A stretch of 26,852 bases of DNA from a virus (IMGVR_UViG_2778261537_000020:1-26852), one strand, 5' to 3'; positions 1-5,683 are shown, counted from the first letter of the stretch. Numbers and translations: made by a program. Notes: generated by a model from the letters alone, not told the origin.

Positions 1-186
1 TCAGGCTTCCAGCAACGATCTTTCTTCCTCCGTTGCGATTTCCAGATCTACAGCATCCTGCAGTGGCGCAATATACTCACTGAATTCCTGGATGTAGAAC
101 TGTGTGGTGACGGTCTTCCAGCTATTCGGCTCCTGCTGTATTGAAGCATACCAGGCTATTTCAATATCGCTATGCTGCGGCAGCAT
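1..186 (-). pseudogene. tfaX: Tail fibre assembly protein fragment (tfaX-like); C-terminal part matches the Tfa at 2698..3279 but ends in a premature stop at window position 1-3
   Basis: 61-aa ORF containing ...[25 protein letters not shown], closely matching ...[29 protein letters not shown]... of the full Tfa; nt 1-82 align with 2773-2855; TGG to TGA relative to the intact copy; unrelated N-terminus. Confidence 0.5.
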
Positions 187-242
187 TTAACCCCTTGTAA
201 TTCATTGCCATAATTGATTTAATTCACAAATAAAACTATAAC

Positions 243-910
243 ATGGTGAAATTAATGAAAAAAAACACAGATGATGGGGCTAAAATTTACACACCACTTA
301 CCCTAAAGCTTTATGACTGGTGGGTTTTGGGAGTATCAAATCGGCTTGCATGGGGATGTCCTACAAAGGAACACCTTCTTCCACACTTTCTGGAACATTT
401 AGGTAACAACCATCTGGATATTGGTGTTGGAACTGGGTTTTACCTTACTCACGTACCTGAGAGTAGTCTGATATCTTTAATGGATTTGAACGAAGCTAGC
501 CTGAACGCGGCATCTACAAGGGCTGGGGAATCAAAAATTAAACATAAAATTAACCATGATGTTTTTGAACCTTATCCCGCGGCGTTACATGGTCAATTTG
601 ATTCCATTTCCATGTTTTACCTTCTTCACTGCCTGCCTGGAAATATATCTACAAAAAGCTGTGTAATACGCAATGCGGGCAGGCCTTAACTGACGATGGA
701 ACTCTATACGGAGCCACAATTCTTGGCGATGGAATTGTGCACAATAGCTTCGGTCAAAAACTGATGCGCATTTACAATCAGAAAGGCATCTTTTCAAACA
801 CAAAAGATTCCGAAGAAGGCTTAACACATATACTCTCAGAGCATTTCGAGAATGTTAAAACCAAGGTTCAAGGTACTGTAGTAATGTTTTCCGCTTCAGG
901 GAAAAAATAG
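243..910 (+). pseudogene. ybcY: SAM-dependent methyltransferase (ybcY-like), frameshifted near nt 650-690
   Basis: ORF 243..689 carries a DIGVGTGFY glycine-rich SAM-binding motif; the +1 frame continues plausibly (...TDDGTLYGATILGDGIVHNSFGQKLMRIYNQKGIF...SASGKK*) to a stop at 908-910. Confidence 0.55.
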
Positions 911-1275
911 CATCCAACCGCAGCACGTTCTTGCATAAGGCGTGTCTGCGGTTTTTCAACTATTCAGATACATCACTCCCATCACATTCATTCCTCCGCA
1001 TCATAGGCATATAGGCTATATCACCTTGATATTTTTCTTCTTCAGATAAAAACTGTTATCTATGTATACTTTTAAACCCAATCCGTGTAGAGTCTCTGCA
1101 TAAGATAGTTTGCAGTTGACACTTCAGCTTGCGCCATAAACCGCCTGATTTTTGCCGCCACCTGTTAGCATTCCTGTATACCTGAAACGACAATGTTTAT
1201 CTACGAACTTTAAGAACACCCAGGATAAAAATTGTCAACTATATCATATATAACACATTACTAATTCGAGGCTAT

Positions 1276-1389
1276 ATGAACAGCATACTGATAATCACTT
1301 CGCTCCTTATCATATTCAGCATTTTTAGTCATGCTCTAATAAAATTAGGGATTGGCATATCCAATAACCCAGACAAAACCGATGTATAA
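1276..1389 (+). CDS. Small hydrophobic 37-aa ORF ([37 protein letters not shown]), possible small membrane protein
   Basis: GAGG Shine-Dalgarno 5 nt upstream of the ATG; predicted single transmembrane helix; sits in an AT-rich island; not in the supplied ORF track because it is under 60 aa. Confidence 0.25.
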
Positions 1390-1457
1390 GTCAACATATC
1401 CTGAATCAGACATACAATATCGCAATGAAAATCAATAATATTTTAAGGAATATCTTC

Positions 1458-1691
1458 ATGAAATCAAAAGACACCCTAAAGTGGTTCCCTGCGCAGCTTC
1501 CTGAAGTAAGAATTATCCTAGGGGATGCTGTAGTGGAAGTAGCAAAACAGGGAAGACCTATCAATACCAGAACATTGCTTGATTACATTGAAGGAAACAT
1601 AAAGAAAAAGTCATGGCTGGATAACAAAGAATTATTACAAACAGCGATATCAGTTCTTAAAGACAACAAAAATTTAAATGGTAAAATGTAA
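1458..1691 (+). CDS. Hypothetical protein (77 aa from Met-12 with AAGGA RBS; 88 aa if started at 1425)
   Basis: ORF 1425..1691 in the track; AT-rich codon usage; no family recognised. Confidence 0.35.
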   Translation: MKSKDTLKWFPAQLPEVRIILGDAVVEVAKQGRPINTRTLLDYIEGNIKKKSWLDNKELLQTAISVLKDNKNLNGKM

Positions 1692-1920
1692 TATAATAAA
1701 CTTACTTTCTTATCATTTTTCCACTTTAACAACATTTTGCTCCACTTTTCCACGACCAAACAACTTGAAATCTGGTTAAAATAACACGCAACACTATTCT
1801 TCTTCCTTGAGTCCGCCCGGAACTCGAAAAACAAACCGAGTTAAGGCCATTTTTCACAAAATCGATTTTGGGTCTCACCAAAATTACGGGGTTGCATACG
1901 CATTCGTTTATTTTCGAACG

Positions 1921-1940
1921 TGTACATACAAATATGTACA
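1921..1940. promoter_or_regulatory. Perfect 8-bp inverted repeat TGTACATA-caaa-TATGTACA about 70 bp upstream of the serine recombinase; candidate recombinase binding/crossover site or operator
   Basis: Palindrome read directly; an additional ATATGTACA half-site lies at 1976-1984. Confidence 0.35.
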
Positions 1941-2009
1941 AAAATAATCAAAATTATTTTCTGAGATGCATTATGATATGTACACCAATTTCGTATAGAA
2001 GATCTCACT

Positions 2010-2600
2010 ATGTCTCGAATTTATGCTTACTGTCGGGTATCAACTCTGGAAAAGACAACCAAAAATCAACGTCGGGAAATCGAAAGTGCAGGTTTTAACA
2101 TCAAATCTCAGCAAATAATTGAAGAACAAATTAGCGGCTCAGCAGCAACCAGTGAGCGTCCTGGTTTTAACCAGTTGCTTGATCGACTGAAAAGAGGTGA
2201 TGCATTGATTGTCACAAAACTGGATCGCCTCGGTTGTAATCCAATGGATATCAGTAAAACGGTGGAACAACTGACCAAAGCAGGTATCAAAGTGCATTGC
2301 TTAGCATTGGGGGGCGTTGACCTGACCAGTCCACCTGGAAAAATGATGATGCAAGTAATTTCAGCAGTCGCTGAATTTGAGCGAGACCTTTTACTTGAGC
2401 GTACTCATTCAGGGATATTAAGAGCACGGGGCGCAGGAAAGCGATTTGGTCGCCCACCTGTGTTAAATGATGAACAAATACAGAGGGTACTAGAGCAAAT
2501 TAAGTCAGGTATAAATATAAGTGACATTGCCCAAGAATTCAAAACCTCGCGGCAAACCATTTTAAGAGCTAAAGCAAAAAATCAGACACCTGATATATAA
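2010..2600 (+). CDS. Small serine recombinase (resolvase/invertase family) with C-terminal HTH
   Basis: 196 aa; N-terminal YAYCRVST (catalytic Ser), resolvase-like core (...[10 protein letters not shown]...), C-terminal ...[40 protein letters not shown]; occupies the pin-like position next to tfa but is not obviously Pin/Gin-like. Confidence 0.8.
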
Positions 2601-2697
2601 AAATAATCTCGGTGTGAGATTCCTTACGTTTTCCAAGCCCCCCTTCCTAGCCTTAAATGGAAAGATACTTCTAATTATAGAATTTATATATCTTACC

Positions 2698-3279
2698 CTA
2701 CGGTAGGGCTGGCCATTCAATATCCGGTGCAGTTGATGTATCAACACGGTTCAGCAACACCCGATACTTTTTCCAGGCTTCCAGCAACAAGGTTTCTTTC
2801 TCCGTTGCGATCTCCAGATCCACAGCATCCTGAAGCGGCGCTATATGCTCACTGGCTACCTGCATCAGGCTGTTTTTTGTTTCTTCCGCCTCCCGGATCC
2901 GGAACAGTTTTTCTGCTTCCGTATCCTTCACCCAGGCTGTGCCGTTCCACTTCTGAAACTCCCCTTCCGGGGATAACCAGGTGACATTTTCCGGTAATGA
3001 GCCGAGTTCAGAAATAAATAACGCGTCGCCGGAAGCCACGTCATAAACCGTTTTACCCCGATGATCTTCAACGAGATGCCACGATGACTCATCACTGTTG
3101 AAAACAGCCACGAAACCAGCCGGAATATCTGGCGGTGCAATATCGGTACTGTTTGCTGGCAGACCTGTATGAGGCGGAATGTATGCGTCACCTTCACCAA
3201 TAAATTCATTAGTTCCGGCCAGCAGATTATAAATTGTTATGGTCCGTGGTTGTTCACTCATTCTGAAATCCATGTTCAC
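2698..3279 (-). CDS. tfa: Tail fibre assembly protein Tfa (lambda Tfa-like)
   Basis: 193 aa; ...[52 protein letters not shown]... matches remembered lambda Tfa almost residue for residue. Confidence 0.85.
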
Positions 3280-3281
3280 CT

Positions 3282-4184
3282 CTACTTAATATCAGAGACA
3301 GAATATTGTTTATTGAGCGTATGGGTGTGAGCACCAATAACGATGCTACTTCCGTGGCTATGTGCGCCAGAGATGACATTACCTACAGGATTTTCTGGAT
3401 TAATCCGGTGTATATGCGAACCAGGGCGAAACCGGTTATTAGCCTGATGTTGTATCAGTACATCATCAGCCTGATGTTCAGGGTTAATACAGACCTGCCC
3501 GGAACGTGAGCAATACGTCCGATAATCGCCGCATCCAATATATTTAGTATCCGCATAACGGCAAACAGAATTACCCGGACAGTATGCATATGTGCCAAAT
3601 ACTGCCGACTGGCGGGATTGTGCGTATTCCCAGTTAATTGATTCTGTTTTTTTATTAAAGTTATCCCATGCCTGCTTCATCTGCCGGGCAACGCTTTCAA
3701 ACGGCACCTGACCACATCCGGCTCCCATTGCAGGGAATACCACCGTCTTTATTTTCCTGTCTGTCGTTGCGTTTTTATTGTGCTGAAAGATAGCAAGTAG
3801 AGCTGCCCAAGTTGCGTTATATACAGCGTCTGTTCCGTCAATTGTCAACGGAACACGCATTGTTGGCGCATGTACCAGCCAGGGGTGATAATTATGCCCC
3901 GTTTCAATAACAAATGCAGAACCTACAGGCTGCTCGCCGAGATATTCACGAAGAATATGATTCTGAACGCGGGCCTGTAGCTGAGAACCGAAGAATGTGG
4001 TAATGGCGGCATCAACACCGCCATCCATCAGGCCGAAACTATTTGCCGCACTTACCATGCAGTCAAATTCTCTGATTGTTTCAAATGGCTTTCCGACAAT
4101 ATTCACATTATCTGCATTTGCAAATACCCGCTTAAATGCTTCAGCCATTTCGGTTACTGGTGCAGAAAGAATGAGCGTAATCAT
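3282..4184 (-). CDS. Macro-domain protein (ADP-ribose-binding/processing fold) with Cys-rich region and His-x-His tail-fibre-tip-like C-terminus
   Basis: 300 aa; macro signature ...[19 protein letters not shown]...; C-terminus ...[20 protein letters not shown] resembles HxH repeats of Stf tips; start overlaps the stf stop (ATGA) and its stop lies 3 nt before tfa. Confidence 0.6.
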
Positions 4185-5683
4185 GCAAGCCTCACAATAT
4201 AGTTAAATGCGATGTTTTTGACGGTGTTTTCCGCGTTACCAGCAGCGTTAACGGTGATGGTGTGTCCATGTGAGCCAATCGCAACCGAGTGCGTATGAGC
4301 ACCAATACCGACAGTATGTGCGTGAGCACCTGCAGATGCAGCTGTGCCGCTGACACTATGAGTGTGCGCTCCTGCAGCACTTGTATTCACACTGGCCGCA
4401 GACACTACCTTATGTACTGACCCATTTTGTGACCACTGGCTGACTGCTGATGCGCCTGTGACACTATGAGTATGGTTTCCGGCACTTGCGGCTGTACCGC
4501 TCACACTGTGCGTATGCGCCCCGATGTTATTCGTGGATTTAGTGCCGTAATCAAACGACGATGTGGTTTTCGTCCCCAAATCCGTACTGGATGCGCTGGC
4601 GCTGTGGGTGTGCGATTTAATGCCGTCCTGTTCCTGAGACAATACGGCCCGACCACTGGCAGGTTTGCCCTTAATCGTCCAGCCACGCATATCAGGGATC
4701 ACGCCTGACGGATAAGCGGCTGCAAGTTTCGGGTATGCAGATTTGTCAAAAGTCTGCCCCTGCATCAGGACATAACCAGACGGAACGGTATCTGATGGCC
4801 ACGGGATTGGTGCACCGACTGGATAAAACTCTGCAGGAGGATGAGCCGAGGTGTAAAGCTGCGCCCACGGCGACCAGTTTGCGTCGGTCGTATCCCGTCG
4901 TGAACGAATAAATGCCGGAGCATGAGCACCGCTTGTACCACTCCAGCCGATGAGTAACTCACCTTCGCCAACGGCTGTCATCCCTTTCAGGTGAATGATA
5001 TTTCCATACGTTGTTGGATATCCGTTGTTATACACCTCGTATAACTCAAGACCTGCTGCCCCCTGCGTATTGTCTGTCAGCGCGGCTACCCGACCTTTTG
5101 AAGCCAGATTAACTGATGATACTGCTGTTCCACCTGACGGTAGCGCCCCGATCTCTGATGCCGTTGGCTTATTTCTGGAGTTATAGTCCCTTCGCCAGCC
5201 AGGTGAATAATCTGTTCCGTGATTAATATAGGTAAACTGGGCGTTGGTTGTTCCGCCACCGCTGGATGTGGTCGGAGTGGTAATGCGGATCGTCATCGCT
5301 GACTTTATCCCCATTACTTCAATGACAGCTCCGGCGAGATGAATATTACCGCAGCCAGTATCAGTAATGATTTTATTATTGCCATAAGACCAGGAACCCT
5401 TGCACATCCAGTATGGATGGTTAAATGCTCCCTGAGAATCCAGCCACTCGATAAACTGTGCAGTCGTCCAGTTTCCTGTTGTTGTGCTTACTGACCCACC
5501 GAAGGCACGGCAGGCACCAATATTTTTCGTAAAGGTGTCTTTGCCAGGGATATCCGCACCGTTCTGATCTTTCTGCAGACGTTTCTCAGCATTGTCATTG
5601 GCTGCTTTTACTGCCTTTGGCGTTGCCGCCAGCGTTTCAGACGTGCTGTTGGTCGCGCTGCTCACCCTTGCGGGCCATGTCAT
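4181..5683 (-). CDS. stf: Side tail fibre protein Stf, distal portion only (5'-truncated by deletion/fusion to H)
   Basis: 500 aa; begins at the internal conserved ...[19 protein letters not shown]... motif and ends ...[31 protein letters not shown] as in lambda Stf; the N-terminal half of Stf is absent. Confidence 0.8.

Follow-up and report, generated by a model that had tools for sequence, protein, structure and literature searches.

Two small ORFs of an AT-rich phage island as the known ynaM/ynfT–ydfK/ynaE prophage cassette, with a predicted AriR-like fold for YdfK

What do two adjacent small ORFs do, one for an almost wholly hydrophobic 37-aa peptide and the other for a 77-aa protein, when they sit just ahead of a serine recombinase gene in viral DNA? 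The pair lies in a stretch of 26,852 nucleotides (IMGVR_UViG_2778261537_000020:1-26852, hereafter the window), in which the initial annotation had described both ORFs as unannotated, left the 77-aa protein in an unknown family, and suggested that the two might form a small toxin/regulator pair or act as accessory factors of the recombinase. Its description of the setting as an AT-rich island holds: GC content is 0.33–0.35 across positions 1001–2000 (0.354 for 1001–1500 and 0.334 for 1501–2000), as against 0.42–0.63 over most of the window. Both ORFs are indeed upstream of the recombinase gene and on its strand (Table 1).

Table 1 Features of the cassette region in the window
Feature	Position	Strand	Basis and remarks
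Conserved non-coding stretch upstream of ynaM	915..1275	+	~98–99% identity to Qin, Rac and O103:H2 copies
ynaM/ynfT Shine-Dalgarno, GAGG	1268..1271	+	4 nt before ATG 1276; read from the sequence
ynaM/ynfT, 37 aa	1276..1389	+	ATG start; ORF list
ynaM–ydfK spacer, 68 nt	1390..1457	+	Sequence; includes the ydfK Shine-Dalgarno and the rejected 11-codon extension from ATG 1425
ydfK Shine-Dalgarno, AAGGA	1445..1449	+	8 nt before ATG 1458
ydfK/ynaE, 77 aa	1458..1691	+	Internal ATG of an 88-aa ORF, 1425..1691
Serine recombinase (Pin-type)	2010..2600	+	Domain matches, Resolvase and HTH_7
Tail-fibre assembly gene	2698..3279	-	Domain match

Both products fall into named families. The 37-aa peptide matched the Pfam family PF23676 (YnaM) with 96.2 bits (cut-off 27) over residues 1–37 of 37, the NCBIfam YnaM/YnfT family NF041477 with 63.9 bits (cut-off 35) and the PHROG family phrog_35882 with 72.7 bits, and it is 100% identical to YnaM of the Rac prophage and YnfT of the Qin prophage of E. 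coli K-12, that is, to the YnaM and YnfQ sequences printed in PMC6001520 (VanOrsdel et al. 2018), where YnfT is called ynfQ. The 77-aa protein shows 97–99% identity, over 100% of its length, to PF27475 (YnaE) proteins named 'cold shock protein YdfK', and it matched phrog_2718 with 158 bits; Q71K is its sole difference from Qin YdfK, with residue 51 differing in addition from Rac YnaE. At the nucleotide level, the window follows both Qin and Rac at ~98–99% identity from ~915 to the start of pin, and the three substitutions that separate its ynaM from Qin ynfT are all synonymous. A megablast search with positions 1150–1800 against complete E. coli genomes matched the region in 2807 of 5426, and the features 'YnaM/YnfT family protein' and 'cold shock protein YdfK' lie under all 30 of the matches listed. 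The annotation of K-12 MG1655 has the gene order ynfT-ydfK-pinQ-tfaQ-stfQ at the Qin end and ynaM-ynaE-pinR-tfaR-stfR at the Rac end (locus tags b4744 for ynaM and b1375 for ynaE in Rac; b4748 for ynfT and b1544 for ydfK in Qin). Judged by these sequence matches, the region is almost certainly the known prophage cassette ynaM/ynfT–ydfK/ynaE, the one located terminally in the cryptic prophages Rac and Qin. Neither gene is new: E. coli K-12 has both under established names and annotations, and their products have been detected by experiment, so that 'unannotated' is true of the raw window only, and the larger protein has a family, YdfK/YnaE, as the peptide has in YnaM/YnfT.

The start of the larger gene was settled by mass. 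With the initiator Met included, the 77-aa forms have computed monoisotopic masses of 8745.75 and 8772.80 Da, as against 10129.6 Da for an 88-aa product; because the published intact masses of YdfK and YnaE, 8772.78 and 8745.75 Da (PMC5594050), equal those of the 77-aa forms, the 77-aa start is real. The alternative start at ATG 1425 was rejected, the extension being interrupted by an in-frame stop in Salmonella, and of the 77–88-aa range given initially the short form stands and the long one falls. The AAGGA ribosome-binding site described for this start is present, and so is the GAGG motif ahead of the 37-aa ORF, the spacing of which we count as 4 nt rather than the 5 nt stated.

A diverged copy of the cassette in a Salmonella prophage, with ~81–83% nucleotide identity to the window, delimits what is conserved. 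Similarity begins ~60 nt before the ynaM ATG, becomes strong from the Shine-Dalgarno and ends at the ydfK stop; GAGG is conserved and the spacer is partly conserved. Between the two copies, dN/dS is 0.107 for ynaM (13 synonymous and 8 non-synonymous changes) and 0.098 for the 77-aa ydfK (25.5 synonymous and 14.5 non-synonymous). Both ORFs thus evolve under purifying selection across the E. coli–Salmonella divide, and this comparison of synonymous with non-synonymous change, which had been proposed as a check, adds to the family matches of the peptide and to the published detection of the proteins in identifying the two ORFs as real genes.

The cassette is located between the integrase/attachment end and the pin–tfa–stf tail-fibre module of lambdoid phages. 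In the phage collection it occurs in 11 records of E. coli temperate phages and in two records of one Salmonella phage; viable lambdoid phages that carry it include mEp460, 2H10, Tritos and others, and in mEp460, the one E. coli phage record inspected, it lies between int and pin in the att-proximal accessory region. Ahead of the module, the window has a frameshifted SAM methyltransferase gene and a tfa remnant in place of the host junction.

Do the two proteins then serve the recombinase beside them? As accessory factors of the adjacent Pin-type DNA invertase, YnaM and YdfK would act, for example, in directionality or in binding the enhancer. The two genes lie on the same strand directly upstream of pin, in the window as in E. 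coli lambdoid prophages and phages, and older annotations label YdfK a 'predicted DNA-binding transcriptional regulator'. The distribution of the cassette argues otherwise. In Salmonella, its immediate neighbour is the tail-fibre assembly gene of a baseplate-type tail module, with no recombinase gene there, and Pin lies downstream in just 11 of the 66 species-representative loci that encode a YdfK relative, all 11 of them of the Escherichia/Shigella type. Compared with the window's Pin protein, that of O103:H2 12009 shows 99.5% identity and PinQ 84%; because the cassette is ~98–99% identical to Qin but Pin only 84%, a recombination (mosaic) junction lies between ydfK and pin, the Pin allele having been exchanged beside a cassette that stayed nearly the same. 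Inverted repeats that would bracket the cassette as an invertible segment were not found in the window, and the invertases Gin, Hin, Cin and Pin require just host Fis and an enhancer. We consider a role of the cassette in recombination, as suggested initially, extremely unlikely.

The non-coding flanks hold few recognizable signals. The conserved stretch upstream of ynaM presumably contains the cassette promoter and the 5′ leader, and a promoter scan of the cassette region returned only weak sigma-70-like matches, six as against 5.0 expected in shuffled sequence. Scanning for terminator-like sites found none upstream of ynaM or in the ynaM–ydfK spacer. Folding of the leader (1075–1290, z = -0.21) and of ynaM with the spacer (1255–1475, z = -0.15) did not make a thermosensor-like structure evident. 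The cspA cold box was searched for and not found near the cassette, the hexamers that SELEX work has published for ydfK/ynaE had no convincing placement in the sequence, and neither a promoter nor an RNA structure typical of cspA-type cold-shock genes was found at the cassette. An Rfam scan of positions 1–4000 at a permissive E-value gave no plus-strand match over 1000–1700, and Rfam sRNA families had no match on either strand over 1060–2570; beyond this, the scan matched only IS009, in the tfa genes, and CssrB, below threshold and on the minus strand.

The 37-aa product has the hydrophobic single helix and polar tail initially ascribed to it. The helix spans about residues 3–28 (~25 residues; hydropathy over 19 residues peaks at 2.5), and the polar C-terminal tail carries the motif SNN-x-D; this predicted architecture is of the small single-pass inner-membrane protein type. 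By analogy, YnaM resembles proteins of the MgrB, AcrZ, MgtS and SgrT type, which likewise are shorter than 50 aa, cross the membrane with a single helix, carry a short, conserved soluble tail, are detected by SPA tagging and show stress-linked expression; in contrast to these, we know of no partner membrane protein for YnaM.

Equally, YnaM is like Hok, TisB, LdrD, IbsC, ShoB and DinQ, short hydrophobic single-helix inner-membrane peptides that are often encoded by prophages or other mobile DNA, which brings up the toxin/regulator pair. Under this explanation, YnaM would be a type I-like, pore-forming membrane toxin (Hok, TisB, Ldr, Ibs) controlled by YdfK or by an antisense RNA. Its length, its one strongly hydrophobic helix with a short polar tail, its location on a prophage and its tight linkage to a second small gene all fit, and a sigma-70-like match of the minus strand (1467..1440) is a conceivable promoter for an RNA antisense to ynaM. 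Type I toxins, however, are normally kept untranslated. YnaM is readily detectable from its own locus: immunoblots of exponential and stationary-phase cells showed both YnaM and YnfQ when SPA-tagged on the chromosome, tetracycline ribosome profiling was positive for both ORFs (PMC6001520), and the level of tagged YnaM in LB cultures was comparatively high, above that of most newly detected small proteins (PMC6001520; bioRxiv 10.1101/511675). In one ribosome-profiling study, an initiation peak was absent at ynaM. The conserved partner of YnaM, unlike that of the type I toxins, is a protein gene, and an antisense RNA is neither known for it nor found in the Rfam sRNA search of both strands; promoter-like matches, including the one on the minus strand, occur at chance frequency; neither protein had a match in PADLOC; and YdfK homologues occur without YnaM in more than 45 genera, which is unlike an obligate antitoxin. 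The initial reading was thus right about a linked pair, and its toxin half is very unlikely.

A different alternative would move the function of ynaM from the peptide to the RNA. In that case, ynaM would be a regulatory leader ORF only, part of a cold-shock 5′ leader in which its translation controls ydfK by attenuation or translational coupling, with a functionless peptide as the by-product. The ORF lies within the stretch that earlier transcriptome work took for the ynaE/ydfK 5′ leader, and passages of PMC4152368 and PMC5089854, citing Raghavan 2011, describe short, prematurely terminated ynaE/ydfK leader transcripts that bind Hfq and co-precipitate with it; these transcripts map where ynaM/ynfT is now annotated and would largely be ynaM mRNA. 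The gap of 68 nt to ydfK, without a terminator-like site, is likewise in keeping with a leader. Nevertheless, selection has preserved the peptide sequence, SNN-x-D is invariant in four aligned family members and recurs in the Raoultella-type ORF, the tagged peptide is stable enough to accumulate, and an alternative hairpin or terminator was not seen, the folding z-scores being about -0.2. Furthermore, in Raoultella-type loci the YnaM-like ORF is downstream of a YnaE paralogue and cannot be a leader there; because the linkage is kept in both gene orders, a mere leader ORF is disfavoured, and we regard this explanation as improbable. A dual role of ynaM, as peptide and as leader, may apply.

We next consider YdfK. 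The literature describes strong induction of YdfK/YnaE in the cold (cold shock, PMC5594050, PMC10654059), and Polissi et al. 2003 is the source to which a citing paper traces the cold induction of the ydfK/ynaE transcripts. Top-down mass spectrometry identified YdfK and YnaE, with peaks for both after colony refrigeration (Kocurek et al. 2017, PMC5594050). Transcripts of ydfK (5.3-fold) and ynfT (5.7-fold) were up alongside cspI, cspG, cspB and deaD in a single RNA-seq data set. At 16 °C, YdfK also co-purified with NudC; the RNA helicase CsdA was present in these pull-downs too. Such data could make YdfK a nucleic-acid chaperone or a DNA-binding cold-shock regulator, with YnaM as an unrelated passenger, and the computed pI of 9.7 shows the 77-aa protein to be basic, as would suit this role; some sources name it a 'DNA-binding transcriptional regulator'. 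Its sequence, by contrast, contains neither a cold-shock domain (PF00313) nor an HTH family in Pfam; the name 'cold shock protein' describes its regulation and not its fold.

The predicted structure gives no support to the chaperone either. An AlphaFold2 model of YdfK, built from 18 family sequences, is all-helical rather than an OB fold (mean pLDDT 79.6; helices 15–30, 37–47 and 52–75) and has the three-helix fold of YmgB. Foldseek with this model returned 2oxl as top match (probability 1.00, target-normalized TM 0.81, E 0.042), with the next match at E 1.3; sequence identity in the structural alignment is 15%. Profile comparison of the YdfK and YcgZ families by hhalign gave E 7.9e-5 over 61 columns, at a probability of only 61%, single-sequence comparisons of YdfK with YcgZ, YmgA or AriR gave 2–18% probability, and the NCBIfam YcgZ model scored weakly on YdfK (16.5 bits against a cut-off of 80). 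All three proteins align to one segment of YdfK, ILGDAVVEVAKQGRPINTRTLL. The Pfam YmgB family (PF10798) had no match in YdfK at E up to 10, whereas YcgZ and AriR themselves match it, and a PDB sequence search with the YdfK profile produced insignificant matches only (E about 2). We conclude that YdfK is probably, on the strength of the model, a fold-mate and remote relative of YcgZ, YmgA and AriR that falls outside PF10798; convergence is possible among small three-helix bundles, which is a caveat to the AriR link. The homology and structure-prediction check proposed for the 77-aa protein thus led to YdfK/YnaE and to a three-helix, YmgB/AriR-like model. Given also the recurrent YnaM-like neighbourhood described below, which is found in two gene orders and argues against YnaM as a passenger, the combination of chaperone and passenger is unlikely.

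The comparison with YcgZ, YmgA and AriR (YmgB; PF10798, PDB 2OXL) extends beyond the fold. Similar in size to YdfK at 78–90 aa, these too are cytoplasmic proteins with three helices, and the two groups share a motif, LG-x-AV-x-E-x4-G-x2-(I/L/V), located at helix 1 and the loop after it. Low-temperature expression is a further parallel, known for the ycgZ-ymgAB operon from the BluR/BluF literature. The settings differ: whereas ycgZ-ymgABC is a BluR-controlled operon of the chromosome, the gene for YdfK is carried by a prophage and has a membrane-peptide gene as its partner. AriR/YmgB acts by contacting SpoT and the Rcs phosphorelay directly, protein to protein (PMC10704370, PMC11451591); in the literature searched, we found no report of an effect of YdfK on Rcs or SpoT.

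We searched the six-frame ORFs of 79 loci with an HMM for YnaM relatives. Strong matches were confined to the neighbours of close YdfK relatives in Escherichia, Shigella and Salmonella, where YnaM is upstream of YnaE. Just upstream of YdfK homologues of 56–58% identity in Superficieibacter and Pantoea eucrina lie YnaM-like peptides of the same size, with one hydrophobic helix and an SNN-x-D tail. In Raoultella-type chromosomal loci, a YnaM-like ORF ending …WIAVSNNPD(A/N)TDI, and so with the same motif, is found 34 nt downstream of a second YnaE-family paralogue. The four divergent family members in which the motif is invariant represent one arrangement each. Linkage in both gene orders argues for a functional partnership of YnaM and YnaE, as far as gene neighbourhoods can indicate one. 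YdfK homologues in more than 45 other genera are without a YnaM neighbour, and most homologues are also without a recombinase nearby; because of these genera, YdfK-type proteins can act alone.

These observations allow us to propose, tentatively, how the cassette might work. We suggest that ynaM and ydfK would be co-transcribed as one cold-induced prophage accessory ('moron') operon, because of their 68-nt spacing, the lack of a terminator-like site, homology boundaries that co-vary and their joint induction in one RNA-seq table. YnaM would insert into the inner membrane as a single-pass peptide, and YdfK would bind a host regulatory protein, by analogy with AriR and its contacts with the Rcs phosphorelay and SpoT, and so, at low temperature, adjust the lysogen's envelope or stress physiology; binding of DNA, neutralization of a toxin and assistance to the Pin invertase would not be among its activities. 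Taken as a single best explanation, the identity of the cassette blended with this mechanism, the account is one towards which we lean; the specific mechanism, one cold-induced accessory operon of a membrane peptide and an AriR-like connector, is possible and clearly less secure than the identity. In a stronger form, YdfK/YnaE would be a phage-borne connector of the AriR/YcgZ superfamily that works with YnaM to rewire host signalling in cold lysogens, YnaM anchoring YdfK at the inner membrane or gating its action, with Rcs, SpoT/(p)ppGpp and the CsdA/NudC RNA machinery as candidate targets; this we hold to be doubtful. The neighbourhood of YnaM and YnaE in either order and the shared fold are compatible with such a connector.

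What is new here is the selection on both ORFs, the partnership of YnaM with YnaE, the independence of the cassette from Pin and the AriR-like predicted fold of YdfK. As a discovery this is small, the genes being already known, and ynfT is still classed as uncharacterized (PMC11551758). It bears on the contributions of prophages to cold adaptation, and the predicted fold leads to the testable idea that YdfK is a small protein-binding connector and not a nucleic-acid chaperone.

Last, the YdfK family is small and taxonomically narrow. Only 32 representatives were found at E <= 0.001 among 1.84 billion cluster representatives, and all titled loci are from Enterobacterales, besides a few metagenome bins with sequence identical to that of E. 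coli. In 31 loci, a YdfK homologue is divergently paired with a YnfU-like small zinc-ribbon protein.

Comparison of the window region 1700..2600 with the K-12 Qin prophage (L002) and with O103:H2 12009 (L001) shows a mosaic junction. The ynaM-ydfK cassette and the spacer between ydfK and pin, which encodes a Pin-type serine recombinase, share approximately 98-99% identity with the K-12 prophages Qin and Rac, whereas the window Pin protein is only 84% identical to PinQ but 99.5% identical to the Pin of O103:H2 12009. The tail-fibre assembly gene tfa is represented by two copies of its 3′ end in direct orientation (window 2..93 and 2774..2865, 85% identity), and the segment comprising the methyltransferase gene, ynaM, ydfK and pin is therefore flanked by direct tfa repeats. 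Both copies matched Rfam IS009 (RF02111), the full copy with 218.5 bits and the copy truncated by the window edge with 71.6 bits.

Within this segment, the methyltransferase gene is a pseudogene, the frame of which is split into 243..689 and 737..910 by a 1-nt deletion after approximately position 678; its counterpart in O103:H2 12009 is unbroken and encodes 222 aa. This intact copy is assigned to PHROG phrog_2132 (unknown function) and gave a weak PADLOC match to mad2. The conserved non-coding stretch 5′ of ynaM gave a match to Rfam CssrB, a chromosome-encoded Shigella sRNA, on the strand opposite to ynaM (window 919..1056, minus strand), which fell below threshold at 28.5 bits (E 0.005; gathering score 76).

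Features in the window and in the comparison loci (L-numbers)
Feature	Location	Strand	Description
Methyltransferase pseudogene	window 243..910	+	class I, SAM-dependent; upstream of ynaM-ydfK cassette
Macro-domain ORF	window 3282..4184	-	300 aa; PF01661, 68.6 bits
Salmonella region	L008 3143..3765		5′ of ynaM-ynaE pair
Raoultella-type cluster	L068 3001..3859; L083-L086 2057..2890		chromosomal

Among the species-representative loci encoding a YdfK relative, the most frequent homologue (MKSEDTLDWYPAQLPPVK…) is near-identical among many Enterobacterales genera (L011-L013, L025-L067), suggesting that it either is strongly constrained or has recently spread by horizontal transfer. In 31 of 66 loci, this homologue is paired divergently with a YnfU-like zinc-ribbon small protein, and in all four YnfU-paired loci for which gene calls were inspected (L004, L011-L013) it adjoins a GH94 glucan-synthase-like gene (2860 aa). 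In the Raoultella-type cluster, the YnaE homologue is followed by a second YnaE-family paralogue (78 aa, P0227) and then by a 39-aa YnaM-like ORF, reversing the gene order of the E. coli cassette. The Salmonella locus encodes an additional 70-aa YnaE-family paralogue (hhalign probability 97%), overlapped by a predicted lipoprotein of 137 aa with the lipobox ITGCSS.

Extra cassette copies in E. coli ECGI0523 (L075) and Shigella flexneri (L078) are degraded, both ynaM and ydfK carrying frameshifts and stops, and the cassette can therefore decay where more than one copy is present. Copies of ynaM-ydfK-pin identical to those of E. coli also occurred in metagenome-assembled genomes labelled Caldithrix, Alistipes and Draconibacterium (L014, L016 and L019), which belong to unrelated phyla; these most likely represent E. 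coli contigs contaminating the bins.

Last, the Macro-domain ORF, flanked by tfa on one side and the tail-fibre gene (4181..5683) on the other, is unusual cargo for a tail-fibre locus. It gave a faint PADLOC match to DarG and contains His/Gly-rich tandem repeats resembling those at window 4295..4526.
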